From Candidatus Omnitrophota bacterium (GTDB lineage: Bacteria; Omnitrophota; Gorgyraeia; Zapsychrales; Fredricksoniimonadaceae), in NCBI GenBank assembly GCA_903901225.1, contig CAIUQE010000001.1, forward strand, positions 2,563 through 66,562: 64,000 nt of DNA, given 5' to 3'. Positions 9,378 to 44,976 of the stretch are shown here, piece by piece. The position numbers and the translations under genes are program-made. The notes beneath the pieces were generated by a model, which was given only the letters and a program-made list of their open reading frames with translations, had not been told where the DNA came from and made no database searches. Position 1 is the stretch's first letter, and each line of letters opens with the position of its first letter.

Positions 9378-10244
9378 TCAGAGCCCCTTGCCTGGGAACA
9401 TCATCTTCATATCTGCCAAGAACGCTTCCAGTGAGACCTTCTCTTTATTCTTATCAAGAATAAAATACTCGCCGCCTGATTGCACAATGGCATATTTCGG
9501 AGCATTCAATAACCCCGCACCGTACTTAACGTTTCCCTTTACCTTGACATCCCGATTTATAAGCGCAACTTCCGGATTATCATCTAAAAGCCTGTAAACG
9601 TCCGGCAAGGCCAGCGGCTCACCTTTATATAATTCTTTGTAAATAAATCTAATCACCTCAAGATCCTCGGCATAATCCAATGTGAGTCGATACTCTGTGC
9701 GGCAAAGCTCGGCGGGGATATCAATTCCCAGGATTTTATAATCACGCGCATTTTCCTTGATTGGCTGAGATATTGCAGGGCCACGATAAATCATGTGCGC
9801 CTTATTCATAGCCTGAAGGCTGATTAGCTCCCCCACCGTACCCTGCGCTATCGTCATATTAGCGACATACATGAAATCATAATATTCTCTTTGAAATATA
9901 CTGACGTACTCTGACAACGCGCCAATATCAAACAAAGGCATGTCACACGTGATACGCAATGCAGCGTCCGCCCCCTCCTTCTCAAGGATAGCCATGTGAC
10001 GCTCCAGAATATCTTCCTCGGCACCCATGTAATATTTCACACCCAGCCGCGCACACTCTTCAACCAAAGGTTTATTATTATGATTGGCCGATGTCGCCAG
10101 ATAAATCCCCGCGATCCCATCGACCTTTCTCATGCGTTCCACATGAAGGGCGAAAACGCTCTTGCCGCACACATCCAGCATCACTTTCCCCGGCAGCCTG
10201 TTCGACCCCATCCTGGCTGTAATCACACCAATAACCTTCCTCAT
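9378..10244 (-). CDS. CMP-sugar cytidylyltransferase (SpsF / PseF-like, acylneuraminate cytidylyltransferase family)
   Basis: N-terminal ITARMGSNRLPGK cytidylyltransferase P-loop, about 290 aa with the C-terminal extension typical of SpsF-like enzymes. Immediately downstream (in transcription order) of NeuB. Confidence 0.7.
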   Translation of the reverse strand: MRKVIGVITARMGSNRLPGKVMLDVCGKSVFALHVERMRKVDGIAGIYLATSANHNNKPLVEECARLGVKYYMGAEEDILERHMAILEKEGADAALRITCDMPLFDIGALSEYVSIFQREYYDFMYVANMTIAQGTVGELISLQAMNKAHMIYRGPAISQPIKENARDYKILGIDIPAELCRTEYRLTLDYAEDLEVIRFIYKELYKGEPLALPDVYRLLDDNPEVALINRDVKVKGNVKYGAGLLNAPKYAIVQSGGEYFILDKNKEKVSLEAFLADMKMMFPGKGL

Positions 10245-11761
10245 GGCACCTCCCCCTCAACAGTTTTTGTTGAAGCCATGTTCACCCGTTCCTGGTCCTG
10301 GCGTTTTTTATAAAACCCTGTCAGGAAATCCTTATACAATCTTTTGTCAAAAGAACAACCATAAAAAAGAAGCCTGTTCCTTAATTTAGCAACAAGCATA
10401 AAAAGGCTGTTCTTCATGCGGTCAAAAGAATTCTGTATCTGGTAATTTCCCAAACGCACGGCCGATTCCATATTCAGATAATAACAAGCACTCTCAGAAT
10501 ACCTGCTGTTAACCTGCCAGGGTCTTATATATTCAGCGGCGGTATACATATCAATGATATTCCTGTCGGTCCATCCTTCGAAGTGCTCCGGCTCCTTTAA
10601 ATACCCATTCTCGATCAATTTCGTCGTAAGCTCACATTTGGGATATGGCCTGAACGTGCCAACTCCGCACGTGAAAAATTCATACTTCCTTAGCCGATTC
10701 ATAAATCTGATCGTCTGTTTTATATCGGCAAGCGTTTCACCCGGGATCTCAATGATAAATGATGAACGCGCCACAATGCCATATTTACTGCACTGCGCAA
10801 CGGCATGCTCCGCCTGTTCAGTCGTTATGCCTTTTTTCATCAAACCCAGCGTATGGATCGATCCGGATTCAATCCCCAGTGTCAACTGCACTAAACCTGA
10901 ACGCTTCAATAGCGCAAGCATTTCATCGTTGATAATGCGATCATTGAAATAATCGCAGCGGCACTCCGCATCCCAGGTGACACCCAGCCCCCTTTGGATC
11001 ATGCCTTCACAGATCTCCCGTGTCCTTTTAATATCAACAAAAAAATTATCATCAATGAATTTAAGGTGCGTCAGGCGGTACTTCTTGACAATAAGCCCGA
11101 CCTCTTCCAGGACCTTCGTGGCGCTCTTTTTCCTGTAACGCGTATTATTCGTCACTACATTAATGCAAAATGTGCACAAGGAGGGGCATCCCCGGCTGCT
11201 TTCATACGGAAGCCAGCGCATCGGTTGCTTGACATACGCCGATAACTTGTCGGTAAGAAAACCCGTAATATAACGTTCAATGTGTTCATCCAGGCCATAG
11301 TCCGGAAATGGCAAAGCTTCCATATCCAGAACCTTCTTCGCAAATATTTTCTTTTCCAGGCGCGTTCCCTGGCTGAAAGCATGCGCCAGTTCCAGAATAT
11401 GGTCCTCTCCTTCGCCGCAGATCACATGATCCACATATTTGCAGCCCGCCACCTGCTCAGGAAAAAGTGTGCAGTGCGCGCCTCCTGCAACAACGGGCAC
11501 ACTTGAACTTTCTTTGATGTGTTTGGCAATGGCATACGCCCCGGGGACCTCTGAAGTGAGGAGCGTAACCCCGGCAAAAAGAACGCCCTCCAGTTCACGG
11601 CTGATCGTAGCCAAATGATCCTTTTCAAATGCGCAGTTGATGATCTTCACCTCATATCCTGCGCGCTCAAGGACTGAACCGATCGATATCAGGCCCAGAG
11701 ACGGATAATTATTATAATTGTAGATATTCTCCGGCCTTATGAGCAAAATCTTCTTATGCAT
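10241..11761 (-). CDS. Cobalamin(B12)-binding radical SAM enzyme
   Basis: N-terminal B12-binding domain (KIINCAFEKD..., VPVVAGGAHCT) and radical SAM core with the CxxxCxxC motif GCPSLCTFC. Confidence 0.8.
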   Translation of the reverse strand: MHKKILLIRPENIYNYNNYPSLGLISIGSVLERAGYEVKIINCAFEKDHLATISRELEGVLFAGVTLLTSEVPGAYAIAKHIKESSSVPVVAGGAHCTLFPEQVAGCKYVDHVICGEGEDHILELAHAFSQGTRLEKKIFAKKVLDMEALPFPDYGLDEHIERYITGFLTDKLSAYVKQPMRWLPYESSRGCPSLCTFCINVVTNNTRYRKKSATKVLEEVGLIVKKYRLTHLKFIDDNFFVDIKRTREICEGMIQRGLGVTWDAECRCDYFNDRIINDEMLALLKRSGLVQLTLGIESGSIHTLGLMKKGITTEQAEHAVAQCSKYGIVARSSFIIEIPGETLADIKQTIRFMNRLRKYEFFTCGVGTFRPYPKCELTTKLIENGYLKEPEHFEGWTDRNIIDMYTAAEYIRPWQVNSRYSESACYYLNMESAVRLGNYQIQNSFDRMKNSLFMLVAKLRNRLLFYGCSFDKRLYKDFLTGFYKKRQDQERVNMASTKTVEGEVP

Positions 11762-12756
11762 TATTGCAGCCCCTTTATCATGTCAGCAAGGTCTTTGACC
11801 GTTAACCATGCCTCATTGGTATCGCTGCGATAAGTGAATCCTTTGGGCACGGCAGGATATTTCTTATATTCCGACTCAAACTCTTTTGTAACATTAAAGC
11901 AAGGCAAAATGACATAGGCCCCATCAACAACCCTGGTCGTGCGGGATTCATCTTCGGACACCAGGCTTTCATGCATCTTTTCCCCGGGCCTGATTCCGAT
12001 CGAATGTAATTTATAAGTTGGGTCCACGGCCTTGGCCAGGTCCACCACACGCATAGAAGGGATCTTGGGAATAAAGATCTCACCCCCCAAAGACACGTTC
12101 AACGCCTTCAATACAAGATCAACGCCCTGATCAAGCGTTATCCAAAATCTTGTCATCCCCTCATCAGTGACGGGGAATTCCCCCGCGTTTTTCTGTTTAA
12201 GGTCAAGATACAATGGGATGATGCTGCCACGAGAACCCACCACATTCCCATACCTGACCACGGAAAACTTGACCCTCCCCCCCGCGTAAGCATTCGCGGA
12301 AATGAATATCTTTTCAGCCACCAGCTTGGTTGCCCCGTATAAGTTCGCCGGATTAACCGCCTTATCAGTCGACAAAGCAACGACCTTCTTCACCCCCGCA
12401 TCGATTGCGGCATCAACAATATTGTCAGCCCCGTCAACGTTCGTCTTGATCGCCTCCGTAGGATTATACTCCAGGGCAGGGACCTGTTTAAGAGCTGCTG
12501 CATGGATCACATAGTCCACCCCTTCAAAAGCCCGGCGCAAACGGTCTTTATCCCTGACGTCACCCAAAAAATAGCGGACCGGATACTGCGCCGGCGGGAA
12601 GATCTTGGCCATTTCGCTTTGCTTATACTCATCACGGCTAAAAATGATCAGTTTCTTTAAATTATATTTCTTCAATACAACATCCGCAAACTTGTTGCCA
12701 AAGGAGCCCGTCCCCCCTGTAACCAAAATCACCTTATTCTTCAATAAATCTTCCAC
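11761..12756 (-). CDS. pseB: UDP-N-acetylglucosamine 4,6-dehydratase (inverting), PseB/FlaA1/CapD-like
   Basis: N-terminus KVILVTGGTGSFGNKF is the hallmark of PseB/FlaA1. Extended-SDR fold with a YxxxK (YGATK) catalytic pair. About 331 aa. Confidence 0.8.
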   Translation of the reverse strand: MEDLLKNKVILVTGGTGSFGNKFADVVLKKYNLKKLIIFSRDEYKQSEMAKIFPPAQYPVRYFLGDVRDKDRLRRAFEGVDYVIHAAALKQVPALEYNPTEAIKTNVDGADNIVDAAIDAGVKKVVALSTDKAVNPANLYGATKLVAEKIFISANAYAGGRVKFSVVRYGNVVGSRGSIIPLYLDLKQKNAGEFPVTDEGMTRFWITLDQGVDLVLKALNVSLGGEIFIPKIPSMRVVDLAKAVDPTYKLHSIGIRPGEKMHESLVSEDESRTTRVVDGAYVILPCFNVTKEFESEYKKYPAVPKGFTYRSDTNEAWLTVKDLADMIKGLQ

Positions 12757-14658: not shown

Positions 14659-15867
14659 CTAAAATCCTCGTTTTACCCTGTCTGCCACACCCTGCCAGAT
14701 AGGAACTTCCGCGCTATCCGCTGTTTTGATATAAAGCTGCTTATATCGGGCATAAAGATCGGCGTTGATCGTGCGCTCAAAGTCCCAATCAATATCCCCT
14801 GGCCTGTCCATATACAGGGGTTTTTTTCCAAAATGCTCCGCCATGACTTTCGTATAAGCCCCTTCCCATAGATCCTCCACCCCTGAAAAAGAAATAAAAA
14901 CAACGGGTTTCTCGAAAAGGATCGCAAAACAGAGCGCCGTGCTGGCGTGGCTTAAAACCATCCTCGATCGCCTTACCAGCGCCGCCGTCTGCCCCTTGAC
15001 GCACGAACGTCCATTGAAATGATCGCCCATCGTCTCATAAACTGAACGCGGATGGGCCGCGATCACCACCTTCAACCCTGTCTCCCGTTCAACCTTCGTG
15101 AAGAACGTATTGAGCAGGTCATAATAGTGCTGCGGCTCCACGGGATTCTTTTCGCCCACGAACGCGTAATCTGAATGATACGGCAAGAACTCATCCAGAA
15201 AGACCGCGATATCCTGCGCCTGCACGGCAAGACCTCTTTCCTTCAGATAAATATCATAATCGAACGTGTGCAGGCGCAATATCTCTGTGTTCCTGTCAAC
15301 CGGGAAATATTGGCTCTCAATGCTCTTTTCTCCTCCCGCCAGCAGCAATCGTGGCGGCCTAACGCCAAGAAGCTGCCGTGGCAATCGCAGCAACAGCAAT
15401 TTCCATGTCCTCCGCTCAAAAAGCTTCGTCAGCTTCCGGAAGAACCCCTGGATGCCAACACGATCGCACGGTTTATAGGACATGTCCGGAACAGCGTTGG
15501 CATGTTGGACCACATAGCTCGCGCAAGAACAACTTAAGGAACGATATGCTTCAAGATTCCAATGATCGAACGTTAAAAAGTTGATCACAAGATCGCGGCC
15601 TGTCAACGTTGACAAGTTAGCACGCATGTCTGAGGCGTCTTTGAACACCGTGACTTTTTCTGTTACCTCCCCGCCCACGGGCGACAACCCCCTGGGCAAC
15701 TCCGGATGCGCGATCAAAGAAAGGTCCCAGACCTCAATATCAAAGCCAAGGTCTTTCCATATGCCAACGCCGAAGCGAAGATGATCGCGCGCATTCAAAG
15801 GTTCTTCGAATAAATAAATTATCCTTCTGATCTTCATATTACCCATAGGCAACACCGCTGCGTTCAC
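14659..15867 (-). CDS. Hypothetical protein, possible GT-B-like transferase, tentative
   Basis: C-terminal ...VVIAAHPRS...GKPVVFISFSG... pattern resembles the donor-binding half of KpsS/TagB-like transferases. No other motif recognised. Confidence 0.3.
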   Translation of the reverse strand: MNAAVLPMGNMKIRRIIYLFEEPLNARDHLRFGVGIWKDLGFDIEVWDLSLIAHPELPRGLSPVGGEVTEKVTVFKDASDMRANLSTLTGRDLVINFLTFDHWNLEAYRSLSCSCASYVVQHANAVPDMSYKPCDRVGIQGFFRKLTKLFERRTWKLLLLRLPRQLLGVRPPRLLLAGGEKSIESQYFPVDRNTEILRLHTFDYDIYLKERGLAVQAQDIAVFLDEFLPYHSDYAFVGEKNPVEPQHYYDLLNTFFTKVERETGLKVVIAAHPRSVYETMGDHFNGRSCVKGQTAALVRRSRMVLSHASTALCFAILFEKPVVFISFSGVEDLWEGAYTKVMAEHFGKKPLYMDRPGDIDWDFERTINADLYARYKQLYIKTADSAEVPIWQGVADRVKRGF

Positions 15868-15875
15868 ATCCGCCT

Positions 15876-17195
15876 TTATTCACGTACGAGCCTCTTGGTT
15901 TTTTCACCGGTCCTGGGAATTTCCCCTTTAAGGACCATGACGATGTCCGCGTTCACGTCCATCTTGTCCCGGATCTCCTGCTTGATCGCCGCCCCGATCT
16001 CTTCCTGGCGCGGCACCGGCACGCCATCCCCGCACTCGACACGCACCGTTATCTTTTCGACCATATCAAGCCCCTTGGCCACCACCTGGTATTCACCCGT
16101 GACCTCATCGATAAAACCGGATACGACCGCGCCAATAGCCCCGGGGAAAATATTAACGCCCTTGACAACGATCATGTCGTCACTGCGTCCAAGGACCTTG
16201 AAACGAAAACTTGAACGGCCGCACGCGCATTTATTGTGGTCAACAACATCGATCACATCATGCGACCTGAGCCTGACAAGAGGCTGCGCCTCTTTATTGA
16301 TATTGGTAACGACCAGTTCACCTTTCACGCCCTTCTCGAACGGAAGCTTCCGGCAGTTATCCGGGTCGATCAACTCCACGTGAATGTTGCCTTGCCCCAT
16401 GAAATGCATCCCTTGCTGGCAGCCGCATTCCGCGCCGAACATGCTTAAAACATCCGATATGCCATAGTTCGCATCCATGGCCTTAAAGCCCCAGACTTTC
16501 TCGATCCTGGAACGCGTCATCGGATTTTGTATCCCCGCTTCGCCCGCAAAAAGACCTTTCCTGAGCCCCAATTCCCGGGGATCCATTTTAAACTCTGTTT
16601 CCAGCAGGAGCTCGAGCTTGGCCATATATGACACGGTGCAATGGATCGCTGTGGGTCGGATATTGAGGATCGCCTCAATGAGTTTGCTTGAATTTCCGAC
16701 GCCATAAGGGACAACCGTCGCGCCGGTCGCCTCAAGGCTCTGATGGTCTGTAAATCCTCCCATCCACATGCAATAATTCAAACAATGGAATACAATATCC
16801 TCCGGCCTTAATCCGGAAGCCCAAAAGCAGCGGCTGCCCGAATCTATGGTCGCGGCAATATCTTTGGCTGTAAGTGCGAGAAAAACCGGCCGCCCGGTCG
16901 TTCCGGACGTGCGGTGAACACGCCGCACACAGCTGTTATTGACGGAAAGATTGCTCCCGAAAGGCGGATACTGAAGTTGATCATCGATGAGCTCTTTCTT
17001 TTCCGTAAAAGGCAAAATATCAAGGTCGCGTAAAAGGCTCGCCGCATCCCGATACCCTTTAAGCTTCTTTTGATAGAAACTGCTGCTGGCCAACACATGG
17101 TCGAACTGCTTCAGCAGCCGGGCCCTATCGATCTTGAGGAACAAATCCCCCTGGGTCAGCGTTTCCAGTTCAAGGTCACGGATCTCGTTATGCAT
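15876..17195 (-). CDS. Adenylate-forming enzyme of the phenylacetate-CoA ligase (PaaK/CapK, coenzyme F390 synthetase-like) family
   Basis: HRTSGTTGRPV AMP-binding P-loop and the PaaK-type core (YGVGNS...). The ORF track extends to 17324, but the likely start is the ATG at 17195 (MHNEIRDLE...), 8 bp overlapping the upstream KamA-like gene. Confidence 0.7.
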   Translation of the reverse strand: MHNEIRDLELETLTQGDLFLKIDRARLLKQFDHVLASSSFYQKKLKGYRDAASLLRDLDILPFTEKKELIDDQLQYPPFGSNLSVNNSCVRRVHRTSGTTGRPVFLALTAKDIAATIDSGSRCFWASGLRPEDIVFHCLNYCMWMGGFTDHQSLEATGATVVPYGVGNSSKLIEAILNIRPTAIHCTVSYMAKLELLLETEFKMDPRELGLRKGLFAGEAGIQNPMTRSRIEKVWGFKAMDANYGISDVLSMFGAECGCQQGMHFMGQGNIHVELIDPDNCRKLPFEKGVKGELVVTNINKEAQPLVRLRSHDVIDVVDHNKCACGRSSFRFKVLGRSDDMIVVKGVNIFPGAIGAVVSGFIDEVTGEYQVVAKGLDMVEKITVRVECGDGVPVPRQEEIGAAIKQEIRDKMDVNADIVMVLKGEIPRTGEKTKRLVRE

Positions 17196-18315
17196 GCGGG
17201 ATCTCCCGGGATGACGCCGCATCATCCGAACCATCCAGATACCACATCCGCAAAAGGCCGTTCTCATCCACCGCAGCGGTTTTAGGCAACTTCCAATTCG
17301 GGTTCCACCGCAACCTGTCCGCATAACTATAATGCGACTGCAGCAAGACCTTATTATCCTTCCGTGCCAGCACGGTGCCCTCGTACAGCGTGATCTTCCC
17401 GATATCCGTCATGGCCGCGAACATCGGCTTGATACGGCCTGATATCCTGCCGCTGTTGAGCAGGCGTTTGACCAGTTCAATGCCTTTCCCGAGCGATGGG
17501 CGCAAATGGTGCATACCCTTCATGGGTAAACAGTGGAACAGGTAATGCGCCTCGACATGCAATTCCCTGAGCCTGTCATACAGCGCCGCCAGCGTTTCAA
17601 CATCATCATTAACTCCCTTAAGCAGCACATTCTGTGAATAGATCTTCACGCCAAGTGCTGATATATCCACGATCTTTTCAATAGTTTCCGGGAATAATTC
17701 CACAGGATGATTGATCTGCGTCGCCAGTTCGAACCGGATGCCTGGCTTATGTTTGAATATCTCAAAAATATTATTATCGATCCTGCGCGGATCATGTGAC
17801 AAAAGGCGCGTGGCGATACGCATCGTCTTGACATTGGGCGCGTATTTCATCAAGGCATCGACAAGATAACCCAGGCGCTGGGGAAGGATGAGCGGGTCGC
17901 CGCCCGTGATAAGGACTTCTCTCAGTTCATCCCTGACCAGCTTCGAACCACAAAATAAGGCCGCCTGCTTCAACTCGTCTTCACTCAGAGTGAACATGCC
18001 GTAATGGGCGCGCAGGCAATAACGGCAATGGGACGCGCATACCAGGGTAGGCTCGATCACCAGGCTGTGCCGGTACAAACGCTCCACACCCTTGACCCTG
18101 TGCCCGTCCATCTCCACGTCGACATTCGCCTCCCAATGACGCTCATTATCTTCCAGCGCCACGGCATCCTCGGCAGCCTGCTTTACATACTGCAAATAAA
18201 GTGCCCGGTAATCCGCAGAAGCCGCGCCACCCCCGGCGCACAAAGCCGCCATTTTCTCTTTCAGAAAGGGCGATATCTTCTCGGGAAATACCGATTTCTC
18301 CGTTGTAGCACCCAT
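17188..18315 (-). CDS. KamA-family radical SAM aminomutase (lysine/glutamate 2,3-aminomutase-like)
   Basis: CxxxCxxC motif CASHCRYCLR in the KamA arrangement. Matching size (375 aa), with the downstream ...LITGGDPL... motif conserved in 2,3-aminomutases. Confidence 0.75.
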   Translation of the reverse strand: MGATTEKSVFPEKISPFLKEKMAALCAGGGAASADYRALYLQYVKQAAEDAVALEDNERHWEANVDVEMDGHRVKGVERLYRHSLVIEPTLVCASHCRYCLRAHYGMFTLSEDELKQAALFCGSKLVRDELREVLITGGDPLILPQRLGYLVDALMKYAPNVKTMRIATRLLSHDPRRIDNNIFEIFKHKPGIRFELATQINHPVELFPETIEKIVDISALGVKIYSQNVLLKGVNDDVETLAALYDRLRELHVEAHYLFHCLPMKGMHHLRPSLGKGIELVKRLLNSGRISGRIKPMFAAMTDIGKITLYEGTVLARKDNKVLLQSHYSYADRLRWNPNWKLPKTAAVDENGLLRMWYLDGSDDAASSREIPHA

Positions 18316-18316
18316 A

Positions 18317-19225
18317 TCAATTGTCCCTTTCCTTCAAGAACACCGCCGGATTCCCGACATAAACGCCATGGCTTTTAAGGTCCTTCAAGGCCACGGCGCC
18401 GATGCCCAGGGTCACGTGATCCCCGATCTTCACGGAGTCCCTGACACTGGCATTGGGCGCGATCAAGCAATTCTTCCCGATCTCGACCCCACGGCTGATA
18501 ATGGCGCCTGCCGTGATCATGGCCCCGGCCCGGATCACGCTGTTCGCGCCGATCTGGACCAGGTCATCGATCTTGACCATGTCCTCAATGACCGTCTCAT
18601 GGATGGCCGAACTTTCAATGCTGGAATTTGACCCTATCCACACATGATCCCCTATGATGATCTTTCCGACATGCGGAAAGTGCACCTGCCGCCCTTGAAC
18701 ATCCACCTCAAAATCATAACCTGTGCTGCCGACGGTGGAGTTATGCTTGATCAGGCATTTTTCACCGACCTGAACACGCCCCGTGATGACAACATTGTTC
18801 AATATCCTCGTCCCGTCCCCAATGGTCACATCCGGGCCGATCACAACGTTCTCACCGACCGCGACACCCTGCCCGAGCCGGGCACTCTTGTCGATCATGG
18901 CTGAAGGCGCTATTTTCACCTCGTCAAATTCGATGAAGAACTCATTGAGCACGTCGATAAATTTGATGTGCGGCTCTTTCACGACCAGGAACGAAATGCT
19001 ATCGGTCTGGACAACTGGAAGCCGGGAGGCCAGGACCAGGACATCTTTATGCGACTGAAAACCATGTTCATCCAGGCCGCTTTCATCAGCGCGCACGAAA
19101 GTATTATCGATCATCCGCCGCCATGATGAAGGGCCCCGCACAATAAAATCACGGCCAATAAGCTCAGCCTCAAGGAAACCGGCTATCTCGGAAGCGAATA
19201 TGTCGGCTGTTTTCATTTTATACAT
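18317..19225 (-). CDS. Left-handed beta-helix (hexapeptide-repeat) N-acyltransferase, LpxD-like
   Basis: Repeated [LIV]-G-x-x-x-x hexapeptides across the C-terminal two-thirds (IGDHVWIGSNSSI, IGANSVIRAGAMI, ...). N-terminal region resembles the LpxD uridine-binding domain. Confidence 0.65.
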   Translation of the reverse strand: MYKMKTADIFASEIAGFLEAELIGRDFIVRGPSSWRRMIDNTFVRADESGLDEHGFQSHKDVLVLASRLPVVQTDSISFLVVKEPHIKFIDVLNEFFIEFDEVKIAPSAMIDKSARLGQGVAVGENVVIGPDVTIGDGTRILNNVVITGRVQVGEKCLIKHNSTVGSTGYDFEVDVQGRQVHFPHVGKIIIGDHVWIGSNSSIESSAIHETVIEDMVKIDDLVQIGANSVIRAGAMITAGAIISRGVEIGKNCLIAPNASVRDSVKIGDHVTLGIGAVALKDLKSHGVYVGNPAVFLKERDN

Positions 19226-19245
19226 CAGGCTCTCCTTGGTTTGAT

Positions 19246-20364
19246 CTACACACTGATGGTCTTGTATTCAGGATTCACATAAACATCCTGGTCGCCATCG
19301 CCTTTGGTGACGTAAAGATCATCGAACGTGACATGGCGATGCGGTTCATCAAGGTCCAGGACCATATTGATGCTGCGCCGGGCCCTGATCTCAATGGGCT
19401 GGAACCGCATCGGGATGAAATACTCCCTGTGAACTTTCAAGGATACGAAAGGCTCCGGACAGATGGCCGCCGCCAGCGCGCTGGAGCCGCAAAAGAAATC
19501 AGCCATCACGCAGCCCTCTTCAGAGGCGAACGCAAGCACCGCCTTGACAAGCTCAGGCTCATGGCCCTGCACAGGGAACATTTCCAATATCCGCGCAACT
19601 CTACTGGCATGCCCCTTGATCGGCTCAATACGCACCACGGCTAATCCGCGCTCCGCACGCTGCCCCAGGCCAAGGATCTTGTATTTAATGTACGGATGAT
19701 CGACATATCTCCACTTGAGCGCCTCTTTGTCCTTGCGTGAAGTTGCCTTGCATCTTCCCAAATGAGCCTGCCAGTACGCTTCCGATACAGCCGTAACATC
19801 ATGGATCAGATCATACCCTGTCTTGCTTGCCGGAACACGGGCTGCCATTTCCCTGAAAAACCCTTCCTGTCCGGCAGACTCCTTGTTCTGGAACAACATA
19901 TAACATGCGTCGGCATCAAGGATCGCGACCCTGCGTTCGATCTCAGGACAAACCGGATACCCCAATTTCTCATAGGCCTTCAGCGATAATTCATTCATGC
20001 CATACCCGCAATACATCCGCGTCCTGGACCTCAGGTCTTTCACCAGCGTCCTGCCCAGGCCGGGGATCTTGGCAAAATTCATCCACTCAATATCCCACAC
20101 CGTTGGGACCGCATGGCCATCGATATACGTGGTCCATGGCAGGAAAGCATCAAGGGCCAGAATATGGCGCTGACCATCCAGGCAAGCGAGCATGGAATAA
20201 TCATCCCTGGCAACAACGCCCGCTTTAAATGGCGACATGAAATACTGCCAGCGCACATAAGCCGGATCCGCGCCAAAATACGACGTCCCCACGAACTCGC
20301 GCAATAACCTCAACGCTTCAGGCAACAACGCCTCGCTGACCGGCTCAATGACATACGGCGTCAC
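19246..20364 (-). CDS. Hypothetical protein, possibly acyl-CoA N-acyltransferase (GNAT/FemAB-like) fold
   Basis: No strong motif. Size and a weak GNAT-like core (..GLGRTLVKDL..) only. Tightly coupled with neighbours. Confidence 0.25.
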   Translation of the reverse strand: MTPYVIEPVSEALLPEALRLLREFVGTSYFGADPAYVRWQYFMSPFKAGVVARDDYSMLACLDGQRHILALDAFLPWTTYIDGHAVPTVWDIEWMNFAKIPGLGRTLVKDLRSRTRMYCGYGMNELSLKAYEKLGYPVCPEIERRVAILDADACYMLFQNKESAGQEGFFREMAARVPASKTGYDLIHDVTAVSEAYWQAHLGRCKATSRKDKEALKWRYVDHPYIKYKILGLGQRAERGLAVVRIEPIKGHASRVARILEMFPVQGHEPELVKAVLAFASEEGCVMADFFCGSSALAAAICPEPFVSLKVHREYFIPMRFQPIEIRARRSINMVLDLDEPHRHVTFDDLYVTKGDGDQDVYVNPEYKTISV

Positions 20365-21692
20365 AGCGACTTCCTCCAGACAGAAACATTGCCATAATCA
20401 TCATTCGTGGCCAGGCCGACGGCCTCAACAGCCTCAAGTCGAATAGTATCATCATCGAACGTGTAACTCCACGATGTCCCCCCATGGTAATCGAGGTTCT
20501 CGTGAAAATAATGTCCGTTCTTCGTCTTAAAACAAAAGTATGGCTGCGGCCCCCAGCAGGACTTGTCGGTCTTAACCATCAAGCAGCCATTCTCCAGGCT
20601 GGCATCGAACTGCAATGGCGCCTCGCGCTTCAAGGCAAGCGTTTGCCGGAGGGCCTCGACAGCGCCGGAATTCCTGATCTTCACCTGGGGATATTTCTTC
20701 TGAACCTTGCGCACCAAATTATAAAAGCCATCAATATACGGCCTCATCTCCCGCTCATCATGATCCGTGACGGCCATAAGCGTTTGAAGGCCATTATCCG
20801 CTCTCTGAAACGCTTTCTCGACTTCATGCTCATCGATCGTCCTGAGCCTGGAATTCAGATTCAGGCATCTGGCAATATACCGTTTCATATGGCCCTTGAT
20901 CTGATAATCGTAGAAATCAGGATGGTAGGTCTCCCATTCCGATGTGGCGCGCCGCCAATCACCATAACGCCCGGCTTTAACATCGTTCTGAAGGTCCGTG
21001 ATGCGGTGCTTATCCGCCGCCACTCCCTGATTTCCAAAATCAAAAGGGATCCACTGCTCCAGGAAAAGATTGATATCCGGACGCTCGCAATGAAAACCTG
21101 GCCGATAGGCACACGGAAACCACCCATGGTCGATCACCCGGCGGCTCAATACCTGCAAATGCTCATTCGTGTGTGAGAAATTATTGGATGACTTATTGCA
21201 CTCGCGAAAAAAAGGCACGGGATGGAAATGCCAATGGAGCTCATCCCGGGAAGAGGCCGCTGAAGCCAGTTTCTTTCTATAATAATCAAAGACCACATGA
21301 TACCCCAGCGCCCGCTGCCGCGGGTTGGTGAGATAGCCGACATGATCGGCAATGAACCAGTTAAAAACATAACCATTGCCAAAGTCATCCACATAACGGC
21401 GGCGCCACGTGTCAGATACGATCTCCCCGATCATCTCATCAACCATGCCCCAATTAATGTTATAACTGAGCCTGGTTTTTGACACAAATTGCATGACCAA
21501 AGGACGGACAGCTGCGGGGACACCTTCTCCCCGGCGAAGTTTCTCAAGATTCTCGTCAGATGGCGGAAGGTCTATCCCGAAGATCGTCTTCACCACCTCA
21601 AATGTGGCTGACAAAGACTCATACAAAGGCCCTTCGGTGTCCACACAATGCACAAGATGGACGATCTTATCGCTCATGGCACAGCCCTTCAC
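20361..21692 (-). CDS. Hypothetical protein (possible carbohydrate-active hydrolase or deacetylase-like)
   Basis: N-terminal VHLVHCVDTEGP is reminiscent of metal-dependent polysaccharide deacetylase or GH57-type N-termini. No confident family assignment. Confidence 0.2.
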   Translation of the reverse strand: MKGCAMSDKIVHLVHCVDTEGPLYESLSATFEVVKTIFGIDLPPSDENLEKLRRGEGVPAAVRPLVMQFVSKTRLSYNINWGMVDEMIGEIVSDTWRRRYVDDFGNGYVFNWFIADHVGYLTNPRQRALGYHVVFDYYRKKLASAASSRDELHWHFHPVPFFRECNKSSNNFSHTNEHLQVLSRRVIDHGWFPCAYRPGFHCERPDINLFLEQWIPFDFGNQGVAADKHRITDLQNDVKAGRYGDWRRATSEWETYHPDFYDYQIKGHMKRYIARCLNLNSRLRTIDEHEVEKAFQRADNGLQTLMAVTDHDEREMRPYIDGFYNLVRKVQKKYPQVKIRNSGAVEALRQTLALKREAPLQFDASLENGCLMVKTDKSCWGPQPYFCFKTKNGHYFHENLDYHGGTSWSYTFDDDTIRLEAVEAVGLATNDDYGNVSVWRKSL

Positions 21693-22407
21693 TGTTCAAA
21701 TGCTCTTTCCAGATGGCCTCAATGGCCAAAAAATCAAATTTATCGTCAACCTCGTAATTCTGCCAGCGCTGCAGATAATACGGCATTGTCCTGGCCGGGT
21801 AGAACGTCCGGGCACTTTTCAAACTCTCCACCTTTGACAAATAAATGACCCCGTAAGGGATGAACGCTTCCTGGGGAATATCCTGCATCCGCGCAAATTT
21901 GACATCCGTTTCAATAAAAGGCCGGATCAACCCGTCCTCCCCGACACGTTTGGCCATCAATGGATGCTCAAGGACGACTTTGCCGAAACTGACGACGCTT
22001 TCAGCCTTGTCCGCATGATCGGCCAACAACGCAATAGCATTATCAATATCACCATTAGCCCGCAACGGCGATGTCGGCTCCATCAACCCCAGAAGATCAA
22101 ACGCCTCACCCTTGGCCATGAGCGCATCAAGCGTGTGGGCGACCGTGTCCATGACCGTCGCCTCATCCGCCGCCAATGCCGGAGGGCGCATCATGACACT
22201 CACGCCAGGATACTGTTGCGCCACGGCCGCGATCTGCGCGCTGTCTGTGCTGACAACGATCCGGTCCAAAGACGTACTGGCCAGCGCCTGTTCAATGGTC
22301 CAGGCAATAAGCGGCTTGCCCAGCAATGGCTTGATGTTCTTTCCAGGGAGGCGCTTGCTGCCGCCCCTGGCGGGGATCAACCCCAGGATCTTTTTACCGT
22401 TATACAT
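21667..22407 (-). CDS. Acylneuraminate cytidylyltransferase (CMP-nonulosonate synthetase; NeuA/LegF-like)
   Basis: N-terminus KKILGLIPARGGSKRLPGKNIKPLLGKPLIAWTIEQA is the classical CMP-NeuAc synthetase signature. About 246 aa. Confidence 0.8.
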   Translation of the reverse strand: MYNGKKILGLIPARGGSKRLPGKNIKPLLGKPLIAWTIEQALASTSLDRIVVSTDSAQIAAVAQQYPGVSVMMRPPALAADEATVMDTVAHTLDALMAKGEAFDLLGLMEPTSPLRANGDIDNAIALLADHADKAESVVSFGKVVLEHPLMAKRVGEDGLIRPFIETDVKFARMQDIPQEAFIPYGVIYLSKVESLKSARTFYPARTMPYYLQRWQNYEVDDKFDFLAIEAIWKEHLNSEGLCHER

Positions 22408-23214: not shown

Positions 23215-24203
23215 TTCCCTGACCGGGAGGAACGTTCGATCGCGGCAAGGACTTTCATGGTCCCTACAGCTTCCTGCATGCTGACCATCGCCGGTTTCCG
23301 GCCCTTGATCATATTTATAAAATGTTCAAGCTCATCCAGGTAGGTCTGATTGAAATCATAATTATCGGGCAAACGGAAAACATCCCTGTTCTCATGATCT
23401 TTCTTGCCCTGATAAGAAACTTTCTTGCTGTTCATATCCCAGTCCAGCGTGCCATTCTCCGCGATGATCTGGCAGCCCCGCACGAGACGCTGCGACAAAT
23501 AGCCAAGATGCAGTTCAACCGCCGTTCCATTCTTATACGCCAGGATGGCCGAGCACATGTCCTCCGTATCTATTTCCAAAGCGCTGACACGGTGGACATG
23601 GCCGAAAACTTTTTCAGGCATTCCCAGGAACCACAGCACATAGTCAATTTCATGAACAAGTTCCCTGTGCACACCGCCGCCCAGCGCCTTGCTGGCGCTG
23701 ATCGTCTTGCGGTAATCAACTCCCTTGCGCCAATGCGGCAAATAATAATCCGCGTACGCCCGGACACAATAGATCTTGCCCATTTTGGGAAGATGCTCCT
23801 TGATGAACCGCAGGACCGGATAATAACGCAAGTTGTAGGCAACATCCCAGCGTTTGAATTTTAAGGCTGTAAGTTTCTTTTCAAATTCACCCGCGGCTTT
23901 CAAGTCCATGACCGGCGGTTTTTCCAGCAGGAAAGGGATCTTTTTTCTGCCCATTACCAGCGCGTCGCGCAAATGCTGGCTCGTCGGAGAACAGATGATC
24001 GCGCCATCGATCCGCGCTTCTTTGGCCCACACCCCGTCATAAGAGGCATACTCTTTCAAACCCCTGTCATTGCCCGATCCCGCCGCATGGCGCAGTAAAA
24101 CCACCTCATGCCCCAACGCCAGCGCATTGGCCGCGTGCCTTTTGCCGATGGAACCATAGCCAATAACAAGGAACTTCATATCAGCGCCTGACCCCAAAAG
24201 CAC
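23172..24203 (-). CDS. Gfo/Idh/MocA-family NAD(P)-dependent oxidoreductase
   Basis: N-terminal MKFLVIGYGSIGKRHA Rossmann motif and the EKP consensus (LLEKPP) typical of the family. Confidence 0.75.
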   Translation of the reverse strand: MLLGSGADMKFLVIGYGSIGKRHAANALALGHEVVLLRHAAGSGNDRGLKEYASYDGVWAKEARIDGAIICSPTSQHLRDALVMGRKKIPFLLEKPPVMDLKAAGEFEKKLTALKFKRWDVAYNLRYYPVLRFIKEHLPKMGKIYCVRAYADYYLPHWRKGVDYRKTISASKALGGGVHRELVHEIDYVLWFLGMPEKVFGHVHRVSALEIDTEDMCSAILAYKNGTAVELHLGYLSQRLVRGCQIIAENGTLDWDMNSKKVSYQGKKDHENRDVFRLPDNYDFNQTYLDELEHFINMIKGRKPAMVSMQEAVGTMKVLAAIERSSRSGKWVPLITRQQKRAL

Positions 24204-25479
24204 TGATGGGTTTGCCCGTGATCAGGGACTTAAGATCCTTCCCGACGATGGCCTTGTGCAGTAATCCGAAAGCCTCATCGTAGATCTTCAGCGTATCCTC
24301 GATATCTTTGGGTTGATGCGCGTAACTCGGATGATGGTAACCGACGAACAACAGCCCCCGCTTCACGCATTCCTGCTGCAGGTACGACCTGATCTCGTTA
24401 ACGGAAAGGTCATCGACCGGAGAAAAAACAAGATGCTGCATGGGAGCAAGCCCTATGACCTTGATGATCTGCTCCAGCCCATGTTTGGCGACCAGGCGGA
24501 TAAGCCCCTCCTTCAGGATGGTGCCCATCTTCCAGATATGTTCGATCACCGGTTCATTCTCAATGATCTCGATCGTCTTCAAGGCCGCGTTAAGGCTGCA
24601 CTTCTCCGTCGCGTACGAAGCCGAAAAGAAGCACTGTTCATCGCCGAACTGCTCCATCAGGCTTTTCTTGCCGGCAAGAGCGCTGAGCGGAAAGCCGTTG
24701 GAAAGCCCTTTGGCGAAACATGCCAGGTCAGGCGTGACCTTGAAATAACGTTGCGCGCCACCCAAAGAAAGACGGAAGCCCGTCTTCATCTCATCGAAGA
24801 TCAGCACGATATTGTGTTCTGCCGTTAAACGGCGGATCCCTTCCAGGAAGCCTTCCTGCGGCTCTACCGTGATCACCGGCTCCATCACAAGGGCCGCGAT
24901 CTCATGGGCCTGCGCCTTGATCGTTGTTGCGATAGCCGCGAGGTCATTGTAATTGTGCGGGATCACCCATGCTGACATCTCCGCCGGGATCCCTTTATTG
25001 CGCGGCGTTGATGCGATGAACCAGTCATGAAAGCCATGGTAGCCGCCGACCGTGATAACCTTGCTCTTTTTGGTGAAATTCCTGGCCAGGCGTACAGCCC
25101 CTTCGCACACATCAGAACCATTCTTGCTGAACCTGACCATCTCGGCGCAGGGGATGATCTGCTTAAGCTTGGCCGCCAGGCGTGATTCTTCCGGGCAGGA
25201 TAACGTGAACACGAGGCCGTCATCAATACCCTGTTTCGCCGCGGCATTCACGCGCGGGTCCGCGTAACCGAGGTTGATCACGCCCAGGGACATGGAATAA
25301 TCGATGAATTCATTCCCGTCCACATCATAAACCCTGCAGCCTTTGGCCTTCTCAATGAAAAGGGGTGACGCGCCGATCACATACAGGTTCGGATTGCGGC
25401 TGAATGTGGAGGTCCCCATCGGGATCAATCCCAGCGCGTCCTCATACATCTTCAACGAATGTGTGAACTTCATTAACAA
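24181..25479 (-). CDS. Class III (GSA-aminomutase-like) PLP-dependent aminotransferase
   Basis: FDEMKTGFR motif (PLP-lysine region of class III aminotransferases such as HemL), a GYHG segment, about 432 aa. Confidence 0.75.
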   Translation of the reverse strand: MLMKFTHSLKMYEDALGLIPMGTSTFSRNPNLYVIGASPLFIEKAKGCRVYDVDGNEFIDYSMSLGVINLGYADPRVNAAAKQGIDDGLVFTLSCPEESRLAAKLKQIIPCAEMVRFSKNGSDVCEGAVRLARNFTKKSKVITVGGYHGFHDWFIASTPRNKGIPAEMSAWVIPHNYNDLAAIATTIKAQAHEIAALVMEPVITVEPQEGFLEGIRRLTAEHNIVLIFDEMKTGFRLSLGGAQRYFKVTPDLACFAKGLSNGFPLSALAGKKSLMEQFGDEQCFFSASYATEKCSLNAALKTIEIIENEPVIEHIWKMGTILKEGLIRLVAKHGLEQIIKVIGLAPMQHLVFSPVDDLSVNEIRSYLQQECVKRGLLFVGYHHPSYAHQPKDIEDTLKIYDEAFGLLHKAIVGKDLKSLITGKPISAFGVRR

Positions 25480-25482
25480 CTC

Positions 25483-26655
25483 CTATCTAAGAGAGAATAC
25501 AACCGCCTTGATCTCATCCTGCCCGAATTTCACCGGATTCTGGTCGAACGCCGCTTTCAACTGCGCTGAATTATCAACGATCAGCATCAGGTCGCTCTCC
25601 GTCTTGACCCCGAACCCCTTAAGGTCGGTCGGGATACCCAGCGCATGGCTAAGCGCCTCGATCGCATCCGCGAATTTTATGGATTTCTCTTTCGGGCTCA
25701 GCCCATGACCGTCGGATACGAGGTCATAAAGCTCGGCATATTCATAATATTCATGCGCGACATTATGCTTGATCACACCCGGCAAAAATACAGATCCTGC
25801 CAGGCCATGCGGGATATCAAAATAGACCCCCAGAGGATAGCTCAACGCACCCGCCGGACCTGCGCCGGCATTCATCAAAGCCGCCCCCGCGCAACCGCTG
25901 CCGATCAGCAGGTTCAGCTTGACGGGCGTTGACATGTCGCCTTGGGCAAGCTTGTTCAGGTTCTCAAAAAGGAGTTTGAACGCCTGCCGGGAAAACATCC
26001 TTGAAATGAAGGTGGCATTCCTGGCCACAAAACTCTCCAGGGTATGCGTCATGGCATCCATGCCCGCGGAAGCAAAAACCTTCATCGGGCAACTGCTCAA
26101 GAATTGGGGATCATAGACCGCCAGCCGCGGGTAATTGTACTCCGTGTTGATGCCGAACTTCCACTTTGCCGCCGTATCAATGAAGACCGCGTACGGGGTC
26201 ACTTCGCTGCCCGTCCCGGCCGTTGTCGGCAGTGCCACAACAGGTAAAGGCATATTCTTGACCTTGCCAAACCCGCGGTAATTGATCGCCGCGCCCTCGT
26301 TGGTCTTGAGCGTCGCCAACCCCTTGGTCAGGTCGAGCGTACTGCCACCGCCGATGCCGACAAAACAATCCAACGCCACATCCTGAAAACCCGCCTTGGA
26401 CTGATCCAAATGGTCATATGTCGGCTCAGGCATTTCATTCACAAAAAGCGTGACGTGTTCCAACTCTTTCTGGCAAATGCCAATGATCTCTTTAACATAC
26501 GGGCAATGGTCATAAACCCCTTTATCGACCACGAGGCCTATCCTGTTCCACGCATAGTTCTTGAGGTACTTCGGCAATTCACGGGCGATCCCGTCGCCGC
26601 TGAGCATTTCGGTCTTCATGACAAAACGGATATTTTCTTTCAAGTGATCTTTCAT
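25483..26655 (-). CDS. Iron-containing (group III) alcohol dehydrogenase / dehydroquinate-synthase-like oxidoreductase
   Basis: GIGGGSTLDLTKGLA NAD-binding glycine motif and conserved His-rich metal-binding region (HGLAGSV...H) of the Fe-ADH family. Confidence 0.7.
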   Translation of the reverse strand: MKDHLKENIRFVMKTEMLSGDGIARELPKYLKNYAWNRIGLVVDKGVYDHCPYVKEIIGICQKELEHVTLFVNEMPEPTYDHLDQSKAGFQDVALDCFVGIGGGSTLDLTKGLATLKTNEGAAINYRGFGKVKNMPLPVVALPTTAGTGSEVTPYAVFIDTAAKWKFGINTEYNYPRLAVYDPQFLSSCPMKVFASAGMDAMTHTLESFVARNATFISRMFSRQAFKLLFENLNKLAQGDMSTPVKLNLLIGSGCAGAALMNAGAGPAGALSYPLGVYFDIPHGLAGSVFLPGVIKHNVAHEYYEYAELYDLVSDGHGLSPKEKSIKFADAIEALSHALGIPTDLKGFGVKTESDLMLIVDNSAQLKAAFDQNPVKFGQDEIKAVVFSLR

Positions 26656-29442: not shown

Positions 29443-30506
29443 TTGACCGTTTCACGGTATTTTTCCCACTGCCCGACATCCAGCCAGGCCTTTTCACTGA
29501 CAGGATAAACCCCGACCCTGCCATTATTATTTTTGACCAGCTTGATCAGGTCGGTGAAATCCAATGAGGCCCCCTTGGGTATCATCTTAAGCACGGACCT
29601 CTCCAGGATATACATCCCTGTATTCACCAACAGGTCATATTCCGGCTTCTCATCGATATCATTGAGCCTGCCATTGCCGTCTATTTTCAGGACACCGTAC
29701 GGGATCTTGAAATGATTCATGGAACCCACAACCGTTATGTCACACTTATTTTTTTTATGAAAACCATAAATATCCTGATAATCAGCTTTAATGATAATGT
29801 CGCAATTTGAAACAAAAAATGTCTTTGGCATGTCCTTATGGATCAGTTTGAGCCCGCCGGCAGTTCCCAGCGCTTCTTTCTCATGGACATACCCGATCTT
29901 GTAAGGCAGCGAAATATTGTCAAAATACGACCTTATCATTTCACTTTTATAACCAAGGACAAGATGGAATGTGCGGCATCCACTGGCATAAAAATTATCC
30001 ATGATGATCTCAACGACGGGCTTTTCACCGATGGGCAAAAGCGGTTTTGGCAAAATGCGGGTGAACGGATCCAGGCGGGCGCCCTTGCCTCCGGCCATGA
30101 TCACAACAGGCAGGTCGATCTTGGGCATCTCCATCCTCTGTCCGTGCCCGAAGATGACCTCCCAAAGGTGAACATCGACCAACCGACGAGCCCCGTCAAC
30201 AACGGGAATAGACTCAAGTTTCTGATCGATCATCATCTCCTTGATGGCATCGATCAGACAGGTGTCGCTCACAAAAACAGGTTTCTTGTTATAAACCTTA
30301 TCGATACTGTCTTTAAGGCTCTTGTCCGCGAGTATCCATTTACGGATATCACCATCCGTAAGAGCCCCCAGCAGCTTACGGTCATCATCAACAACAAATA
30401 ATATTTTCTCGGCGCCCTCCCCCATTTGCTTCATGGCATCACGGATGGACACGCCTTTTTTTATCAACAGCTTTTTGATGTTCTCTTTCACGTGAGGTCT
30501 CCCCAA
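29427..30506 (-). CDS. CBS-domain-containing sugar-phosphate nucleotidyltransferase (PtmE-like)
   Basis: N-terminal tandem CBS pair (…GALTDGDIRKWIL…, …ESIPVVDGARRLVDV…) followed by the nucleotidyltransferase core VIMAGGKGARLDPFTRILPKPLLPIGEKP. Confidence 0.75.
   Translation of the reverse strand: MGRPHVKENIKKLLIKKGVSIRDAMKQMGEGAEKILFVVDDDRKLLGALTDGDIRKWILADKSLKDSIDKVYNKKPVFVSDTCLIDAIKEMMIDQKLESIPVVDGARRLVDVHLWEVIFGHGQRMEMPKIDLPVVIMAGGKGARLDPFTRILPKPLLPIGEKPVVEIIMDNFYASGCRTFHLVLGYKSEMIRSYFDNISLPYKIGYVHEKEALGTAGGLKLIHKDMPKTFFVSNCDIIIKADYQDIYGFHKKNKCDITVVGSMNHFKIPYGVLKIDGNGRLNDIDEKPEYDLLVNTGMYILERSVLKMIPKGASLDFTDLIKLVKNNNGRVGVYPVSEKAWLDVGQWEKYRETVKCLGM

Positions 30507-43842: not shown

Positions 43843-44976
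<1,134 letters not shown>

Follow-up and report, generated by a model that had tools for sequence, protein, structure and literature searches.

In a 64,000-nucleotide stretch of Candidatus Omnitrophota DNA (contig CAIUQE010000001.1, positions 2,563 to 66,562; hereafter the window), we examined a gene cassette built around a KamA-like enzyme, a member of the radical S-adenosylmethionine (SAM) and pyridoxal phosphate (PLP) aminomutase family. We favour, with moderate confidence, the reading that this cassette serves to synthesise a beta-amino acid and to N-acylate an amino sugar or a nonulosonic-acid precursor with it. The KamA-like enzyme would use a [4Fe-4S]/SAM radical together with PLP to shift the amino group of a free L-amino acid from the alpha carbon to C3, and the side chain of its substrate would be neutral, small or hydrophobic, and not that of Lys, Arg or Glu. 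The translationally coupled PaaK-like ligase would then adenylate the beta-amino acid and most likely form its coenzyme A (CoA) thioester, from which a tandem GNAT protein, a hexapeptide protein, or both would pass the beta-aminoacyl group to a sugar amine. The predicted acceptor is the amino group of a nucleotide-linked 4-amino-6-deoxyhexose or nonulosonate, which a CE4-like hydrolase may expose by N-acetyl removal. Two transferases may serve two nonulosonate sugars, as the presence of both legionaminic- and pseudaminic-type gene sets in the window would allow, or one of them may cap the new beta-amino group. The genes of the cassette are as follows.

15876-17195, minus strand: PaaK/CapK-like adenylate-forming ligase, 439 aa (Pfam AMP-binding and AMP-binding_C_2)
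17188-18315, minus strand: KamA-family radical-SAM/PLP enzyme, 375 aa (CASHCRYC; KamA-family NCBIfam models)
18317-19225, minus strand: LpxD-like left-handed beta-helix hexapeptide protein, 302 aa (Pfam Hexapep; LpxD model)
19246-20364, minus strand: tandem-GNAT fold protein, 372 aa (from its predicted fold)
20361-21692, minus strand: CE4/polysaccharide-deacetylase-like hydrolase with a C-terminal beta domain, 438-443 aa (from its predicted fold)

An earlier note on this DNA, made by reading the sequence, had proposed a module of four open reading frames (ORFs) within 15876-20364. We found all four at the positions given there and on the minus strand, and their translations contain the motifs that it quoted, CASHCRYC in the KamA-like protein and HRTSGTTGRPV in the ligase. 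The translational coupling that it proposed for these two genes is likewise borne out, as the stop of the KamA-like gene and the start of the ligase gene overlap by 8 nt (ATGCATAA), with GGGAG upstream. The end of the hexapeptide gene is separated from the KamA-like start by a gap of 1 nt, and the tandem-GNAT gene shares 4 nt with the next upstream gene, that of the CE4-like protein. The module limits in the note proved too narrow, since the CE4-like gene travels with the tandem-GNAT gene in other genomes (see below) and therefore belongs to the module.

Minus-strand genes from ~0.8 to 40.4 kb of the window form one long, co-directional and tightly packed run. Public gene callers had called the same genes on independent metagenome contigs with identical proteins, the exact window proteins being present on ~30 metagenome contigs; the closest KamA-like match among the best 80 loci of a species-representative scan was at 61%, with no close genome there. 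In a consensus scan of the region from 12 to 27.5 kb, promoter-like sites were rarer than in shuffled sequence. Terminator-like sites in this region were commoner than in shuffles and all lay within coding sequence, so that none was taken as an operon boundary.

The KamA-like protein is a distant member of its family. Scored against six KamA-family NCBIfam models, it reached nearly equal values of 116-133 bits, all under the cutoffs, including 116.8 bits for TIGR03820 (AblA/KamA; cutoff 525), 118.6 bits for TIGR03821 (EpmB; cutoff 369) and 131 bits for TIGR04368 (glutamate 2,3-aminomutase; cutoff 650). It matched the lysine 2,3-aminomutase structure 2A5H at E = 2e-26. A homolog search with this protein returned >1000 proteins, the best 120 of which were 54-72% identical to it and 345-423 aa long (mostly ~360-370) and carried automatic names only, none of them curated; Joint Genome Institute (JGI) pipelines name such homologs 'lysine 2,3-aminomutase'. 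The earlier note had suggested a phylogenetic placement against known aminomutases, and in a rough neighbour-joining tree the clade that holds the window protein was separated from EpmB, from lysine aminomutase and from the glutamate-type and generic KamA sequences, with core identities of 28-31% to these references. An EpmB-like placement, which the note had named as the outcome that would speak against its proposal, was ruled out: E. coli EpmB branches in a clade distinct from that of the window protein and its pocket is acidic, and the window protein scores 118 bits against a cutoff of 369 for the EpmB model.

We then aligned the window KamA-like protein with 2A5H, E. coli EpmB and ~80 relatives from genome loci. 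Its CASHCRYC, TGGDP and SQNV motifs align to Cys125/129/132, Gly170-Asp172 and Gln258 of 2A5H, and the equivalents of Arg134 and PLP-Lys337 (R102, and K307 in DIGK) are invariant both in an 18-sequence alignment and in all full-length members of the clade. In 2A5H, we take Arg134 to bind the alpha-carboxylate, Lys337 to bind PLP, and Asp293 and Asp330 to bind the epsilon-amino group of lysine. These two aspartates are replaced by Leu and Met in the window protein, and every full-length clade member has V, I or L at position 293 and M or L at position 330. The control proteins in this alignment show that the two columns track substrate charge: they hold D/D in lysine 2,3-aminomutase and D/E in E. 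coli EpmB, position 293 is D or E in generic KamA proteins, and it is K in the near-equivalog glutamate aminomutases of two fetched loci (L084 and L085; 594 bits against a cutoff of 650). A Lys at the position equivalent to Asp293 of lysine aminomutase is the mark of glutamate aminomutases. The hydrophobic residues at both positions point to a neutral amino-acid substrate, and the KamA-like protein is accordingly best described, as far as its sequence can tell, as a predicted 2,3-aminomutase with a neutral L-alpha-amino acid as its substrate. Beta-lysine and beta-glutamate, which the earlier note had offered as possible products, were not supported, being unlikely because of this neutral pocket and because the clade stands apart from the Lys and Glu types. 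In engineered enzymes, a mutated active-site Asp was the key change that made two lysine aminomutases into alanine 2,3-aminomutases, as reviewed in PMC9850924.

The coupled ligase has the features that define the ANL/PaaK-like superfamily, namely the P-loop (A3), the C-terminal Lys and a two-domain organization. The closest relatives with solved structures are PaaK 4r1l (E = 1e-50) and 2-hydroxyisobutyryl-CoA synthetase 6hdw, and the P-loop (TSGTTGRP) and C-terminal Lys of the ligase align to those of 4r1l. A true PaaK with a role in paa catabolism, which the note had also listed as an outcome that would overturn its proposal, was ruled out: the ligase reached 214.7 bits with the PaaK model TIGR02155, far below the cutoff of 646.3, and its neighbours are glycan genes, with no paa catabolic gene among the window neighbour genes scanned by profile. 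The ligase is predicted to activate the KamA-like product as the acyl-AMP and then as the CoA thioester. A crude motif scan found no small ORF resembling an acyl carrier protein (ACP) near the cassette genes, a result that fits CoA as the acyl carrier and that we treat as weak evidence.

In order to see what accompanies the KamA-like gene in other organisms, we scored the ORFs of 80 genome loci around its relatives (the best 80 of the species-representative scan) against the window proteins. In 31 of 67 related loci, a ligase homolog lay no more than 3 kb from the KamA-like gene. When we considered the 49 loci with at least 3 kb of sequence on either side of the KamA-like gene (the full-flank set), an ATP-dependent carboxylate ligase of some kind was within 3 kb in 38, and these comprised 22 PaaK-like, 8 classical ANL or nonribosomal peptide synthetase (NRPS) and 8 ATP-grasp ligases. 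The commonest gene order, seen in ~28 loci from >10 phyla, was PaaK-like ligase, one or two LpxD-like hexapeptide genes, and KamA-like gene; the phyla include Desulfobacterota, Bacteroidota, Planctomycetota, Omnitrophota, Hydrogenedentota, Calditrichota, Nitrospinota and Campylobacterota, among others. These ligase-hexapeptide-KamA-like cassettes sit inside Wzx/Wzy, glycosyltransferase or NeuB loci, often with a PIG-L deacetylase directly upstream of the ligase.

The partners of the KamA-like gene vary. SAR11 and other alphaproteobacterial loci have the KamA-like gene followed by an Antibiotic_NAT N-acyltransferase and a classical AMP-binding ligase, beside NeuB. Four loci (L053, L054, L055 and L067) encode fusions of ~770-790 aa with an N-terminal PurT/CPSase-like ATP-grasp domain and a C-terminal KamA-like domain of the same clade, and these occur in glycosyltransferase and DegT contexts. 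In locus L021 (3900-9386 and neighbours), the KamA-like gene stands beside an A-T-C-A-T NRPS, an MbtH-like protein and an M28 peptidase, and in three Streptomyces loci (L039, L045 and L058) it is paired with a PGM1-like ATP-grasp ligase and an MFS transporter; these four loci look like natural-product pathways drawing on the same beta-amino-acid supplier. The replacement of both ligase and transferase by unrelated families around a constant KamA-like protein, together with the fusions, suggests that the KamA-like protein delivers a free carboxylic acid (most simply a beta-amino acid) to an enzyme that activates it, and this is the strongest available evidence for such a role. The sequence of synthesis, adenylation and transfer set out in the earlier note is thus supported by the conserved cassette, by the exchange of ligase and transferase families and by the ATP-grasp-KamA fusions; beta-lysine or beta-glutamate as the product is the part of the note's scheme that found no support.

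Two side observations belong to this survey. The ATP-grasp protein of the window itself (5604-6599) was considered as a counterpart of the KamA-fused or Streptomyces kind and rejected, as it has no specific similarity to them. Near the KamA-like and AMP-binding ligase genes and NeuB of L036, L037, L043 and L052, which come from SAR11, other Alphaproteobacteria and Bacteriovoracaceae, an aminopeptidase-like protein is repeatedly found, with the domains DUF4910, DUF2172 and HTH_47; three of the four loci also have an Antibiotic_NAT gene.

The earlier note had described the product of 18317-19225 as an LpxD-like N-acyltransferase. Its hexapeptide fold (Pfam Hexapep, 96.4 bits over 4 stretches, with the left-handed beta-helix pattern present) and its closest similarity to LpxD support this, but it scores below the cutoff of the LpxD model TIGR01853 (161.3 versus 242.5 bits), its alignment to the N-terminal domain of E. 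coli LpxD is weak (28 bits), and it carries Ala where LpxD has its catalytic His239. The Ala makes a different catalytic arrangement or a non-canonical role possible, and we consider the protein a probable acyl-CoA-dependent N-acyltransferase of uncertain catalysis. Across the loci, the LpxD-like family divides into two classes, one that keeps the LpxD general-base His and one that lacks it, with G, A, S, N, Q, C or Y at the His239 position. The His-less copy is always directly upstream of the KamA-like gene. Loci with two copies (L003, L005, L008, L009, L013, L034 and L069) carry one protein of each class, and single-copy loci have either class.

The 372-aa protein (19246-20364) had no match in Pfam or NCBIfam profile searches, and a search of 5.8 billion proteins found 31 homologs. 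Its AlphaFold2 model (mean predicted local distance difference test score, pLDDT, 91.6) has a tandem GNAT fold of the NMT/Eis-like kind. In the model, the GNAT fold is duplicated in one chain and the CoA pyrophosphate-binding loop (Q/R-x-x-G-x-G/A) is present, with a conserved GLGR loop in the first domain. This model bears out the acyl-CoA N-acyltransferase fold that the note had thought possible, and a probable activity as an acyl-CoA N-acyltransferase follows from the fold. The CE4-like protein (20361-21692), which also had no Pfam or NCBIfam match, has >1150 unnamed homologs (e.g., Pseudodesulfovibrio mercurii DND132_0195). Its model (pLDDT 93.3) combines a CE4/polysaccharide-deacetylase-like barrel with a beta-sandwich-like C-terminal domain, on which basis we predict that it frees a sugar amine by de-N-acetylation. 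In a Desulfovibrionales metagenome-assembled genome (MAG; L022) and an Acidobacteriota MAG (L047), both the CE4-like and the tandem-GNAT genes accompany the ligase and the KamA-like gene, and these two cassettes have no LpxD-like hexapeptide gene. Two flavours of cassette therefore exist, one with the hexapeptide protein (often with PIG-L) and one with the tandem GNAT and CE4-like proteins, and the window has both.

The module lies between a legionaminic-type gene set (upstream) and a PseB/NeuB pseudaminic-type set (downstream). The genes that define this context, with one further neighbour of the module and a gene that bears on the origin of the DNA, are listed here.

14659-15867, minus strand: 402-aa protein directly downstream of the ligase, without a family match
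21667-22407, minus strand: CMP-nonulosonate cytidylyltransferase, a context gene (CTP_transf_3, 92.6 bits)
11761-12756, minus strand: PseB, UDP-GlcNAc 4,6-dehydratase (inverting), a context gene (TIGR03589, 480.7 bits against a cutoff of 407.75)
43843-44904: GAPDH (glyceraldehyde-3-phosphate dehydrogenase); its 90%-identity cluster consists of Candidatus Omnitrophota MAG proteins, so that the DNA probably stems from an uncultured member of this phylum

The upstream region encodes a PglD_N-LbH-NeuB fusion (LbH, left-handed beta-helix), NeuC, a LegC-like aminotransferase and a PtmE-like nucleotidyltransferase, and the window also has PtmA-like, GFO/IDH/MocA-oxidoreductase and cytidylyltransferase genes. 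The cytidylyltransferase gene 21667-22407, which overlaps the start of the CE4-like gene, scored 132.9 bits with the PseF model (cutoff 205.7), and one NeuB of the window stands at the PseI cutoff (340.2 versus 340.25 bits). The twenty window proteins that were scanned with NCBIfam included no equivalog of PseC, PseH or PseG. L022 is laid out like the window, with LegC, NeuC, NeuB, NeuD and PtmE-like genes on one side and PseB, PseC and cytidylyltransferase genes on the other; it has PseC, and no PseH or PseG was found among the ten flanking L022 ORFs scanned in the same way. That the tandem GNAT and CE4-like proteins stand in for the missing PseH and PseG steps is an attractive idea, and we regard these as candidate roles. 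The 402-aa protein (14659-15867) had no match in Pfam or NCBIfam profile searches; a homolog lies directly upstream of the ligase in L022 (157 bits), with a weaker one in L040, and it is possibly a member of the module or a glycosyltransferase.

Further features of the surrounding locus were noted in passing. The fusion ORF (30488-32170, minus strand) joins a PglD_N and hexapeptide NeuD-like acetyltransferase to a NeuB-type nonulosonate synthase, and scores over both cutoffs (NeuB_NnaB 449.7 bits, NeuD 198 bits). Two genes lie between the two nonulosonate sets, also on the minus strand. One (24181-25479) encodes a class-III aminotransferase that resembles glutamate-1-semialdehyde aminomutase (355 bits, cutoff 486); the other (25483-26655) encodes an iron-dependent alcohol dehydrogenase, which recurs in L022 (5528-6712), L025 and L052. 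This pair may build or modify another side chain or supply a PseC-type step. Four minus-strand genes encode proteins with Pfam B12-binding and Radical_SAM domains (3336-4955, 10241-11761, 27382-29442 and 55221-56648). Three of them are within the glycan locus, which suggests cobalamin-dependent methylation or other radical tailoring of sugars or acyl groups. Homologous genes (cluster 9) recur in related loci. A papain-family Peptidase_C1 gene (35502-36233, minus strand) is an odd neighbour for a glycan locus, lying between sugar-nucleotide genes and a 348-aa gene, and the minus-strand ORF 40371-41777 combines class-I methyltransferase and family-2 glycosyltransferase domains and is followed by an Acyl_transf_3 membrane acyltransferase.

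Several points weigh against synthesis and transfer of a beta-aminoacyl group by this cassette. The KamA-like protein falls under even the general family cutoff TIGR00238 (125.2 versus 199.2 bits), which other relatives in the fetched loci pass (e.g., L077 at 294 bits). Residues conserved in aminomutases are changed in it (Arg112 to Leu, Arg116 to Ser and Tyr287 to His) and the C-terminal cysteines are absent, so that its chemistry could differ from a 2,3-amino shift. The hexapeptide protein, as described, has Ala in place of the general-base His239 of LpxD. In 11 of the 49 full-flank loci there was no nearby ligase, and the choice of CoA over direct amide formation is assumed only from the family to which the ligase belongs. 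Finally, the literature that we searched, with most subscription journals outside its coverage, contained no beta-aminoacyl glycan substituent, no biochemistry for the clade and no description of the clade or the cassette.

Some of these points would suit a KamA-like protein that carries out other radical-SAM/PLP chemistry, such as epimerisation, beta-carbon modification or elimination, with the ligase activating a product other than a beta-amino acid. The score below the family cutoff and the replacement of Arg112, Arg116 and Tyr287, which extends throughout the clade, are consistent with this, and no characterised clade member was found among homolog names or in the literature searched. The linkage to carboxylate-activating ligases does not discriminate, since a free amino-acid product would account for it on both readings. 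We nevertheless judge such other chemistry unlikely, as the protein retains the PLP-Lys, the Arg that binds the carboxylate and the SAM-binding motifs and, to our knowledge, the characterised KamA-family members are all 2,3-aminomutases. Production of beta-lysine, beta-glutamate or beta-arginine for attachment to the sugar is very unlikely in our estimation: both positions that would hold the epsilon-amino group are hydrophobic in all full-length clade members, the Lys of glutamate aminomutases is absent, and the protein lies under every equivalog cutoff and in a separate clade. The similar scores of 116-133 bits with the Lys, Glu and Arg aminomutase models and the 'lysine 2,3-aminomutase' label applied by JGI pipelines can be cited in its favour, as can an invariant Asp three residues before the PLP lysine (MTDIGK), which could in principle bind a cation.

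The remaining alternatives concern the later steps. The ligase itself might form an amide without CoA, either by placing the acyl-adenylate on a sugar amine or by joining an amine to a sugar carboxylate, in which case the hexapeptide and GNAT proteins would only acetylate elsewhere, for example on the new beta-amino group. The ligase and KamA-like genes do occur without a recognised transferase in L014, L017, L030 and L061, the hexapeptide copy beside the KamA-like gene lacks the catalytic His, and ATP-grasp and NRPS partners elsewhere form amides directly; however, the closest solved relatives of the ligase are all CoA ligases, and acyl-CoA-type transferases of three unrelated folds co-occur with the ligase and the KamA-like gene, making this route improbable in our view. 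A role outside glycans, in an N-acyl-beta-amino-acid osmolyte (as with AblA/AblB) or in protein modification (as with EpmA/EpmB on elongation factor P, EF-P), appears least credible. An aminomutase together with a GNAT is the AblA/AblB arrangement, and the KamA-like gene occurs without a ligase in the 11 full-flank loci mentioned, some of them in non-glycan surroundings. Yet the window genes stand in an unbroken co-directional run between the legionaminic- and pseudaminic-type sets, in other genomes the cassette is embedded in Wzx/Wzy, glycosyltransferase or NeuB loci, the KamA-like protein is unlike EpmB in score and placement, and the window genes scanned included neither efp nor epmA.

The beta-aminoacylation of a sugar amine that we favour combines elements of several known systems. 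With lysine 2,3-aminomutase KamA (C. subterminale, 2A5H) and EpmB/YjeK, the window enzyme shares the superfamily and its core, the CxxxCxxC, GGD and Gln motifs and the equivalents of Arg134 and PLP-Lys337. It differs from them in being hydrophobic at positions 293 and 330, in its ~28-29% core identity, and in its location in a glycan locus and not beside lysine fermentation or efp genes. The product of EpmB also goes to an ATP-dependent ligase, EpmA. The characterised radical-SAM 2,3-aminomutases known to us act only on lysine, arginine or glutamate, and we know of a neutral-substrate type only as an engineered mutant. This mutant, the alanine 2,3-aminomutase of Cargill (of B. subtilis and P. 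gingivalis origin), resembles the window enzyme in that an active-site Asp beside PLP and SAM has been lost, the key change that admits a neutral substrate (PMC9850924); the window clade lacks both acidic residues of the pocket. The Cargill enzymes are laboratory mutants of true lysine aminomutases, whereas the window clade is natural and deeply separate.

For the steps after the aminomutase, the starter pathway of the macrolactam incednine offers the same three-step logic, with the aminomutase IdnL4, the adenylating enzyme IdnL1 and an acyltransferase (PMC11284099). In that pathway the carrier is an ACP and the acceptor a polyketide synthase, whereas the window has a PaaK-like ligase, no ACP was seen near the cassette, and transfer is predicted to go to a sugar amine. 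The transferases recall the LbH and GNAT enzymes of N-acyl tailoring (PglD/PseH/NeuD, WlbB, QdtC, AntD and LpxD), which N-acylate nucleotide-linked amino sugars with acetyl or hydroxyacyl groups from acyl-CoA or acyl-ACP; the donor predicted here is a beta-aminoacyl thioester. Unlike LpxD, the window hexapeptide protein scores below the cutoff and is without His239, and the GNAT protein is a tandem-domain protein with no Pfam match. The ligase belongs to the same two-domain fold family as PaaK and the 'CapK'/F390-synthetase-like proteins of capsule loci, with conserved adenylation motifs, but unlike PaaK it is tied genetically to a KamA-like gene and has no paa neighbours. No beta-aminoacyl group is named in PMC8157484, and nothing relevant was found in the literature searched on aminomutases in O-antigen or nonulosonic-acid loci, the 'aminomutase' matches in a Legionella lipopolysaccharide paper having turned out to be class-III aminotransferase annotations. 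The enzyme family and the tailoring logic are thus known, and the specificity that we predict from sequence, together with the biological setting, would be new.

Carriers of the KamA-like clade span >15 phyla and include SAR11, Nitrosopumilus, Planctomycetota and Omnitrophota. More tentatively, as a possibility that we hold with less than even confidence, we propose that the enzymes of this clade are naturally occurring radical-SAM 2,3-aminomutases whose substrate is a neutral amino acid (e.g., alanine, giving beta-alanine, or a branched or short-chain analogue), that they provide for a new class of beta-aminoacyl decorations, cationic or zwitterionic, of nonulosonic acids and other amino sugars, and that NRPS and ATP-grasp pathways in Streptomyces and others reuse them. 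The hypothesis is directly testable, as the compact cassette is found in cultured strains (Geomonas oryzisoli, which is locus L003, Dongia deserti and several Streptomyces). A neutral-substrate aminomutase would have biotechnological value for the production of beta-alanine and 3-hydroxypropionate. If the proposal is correct, a large unnamed enzyme clade would gain a function, and abundant environmental microbes would be predicted to carry a chemically new class of decoration on their surface glycans, where beta-aminoacyl groups could affect phage or immune recognition and the charge of the cell surface.

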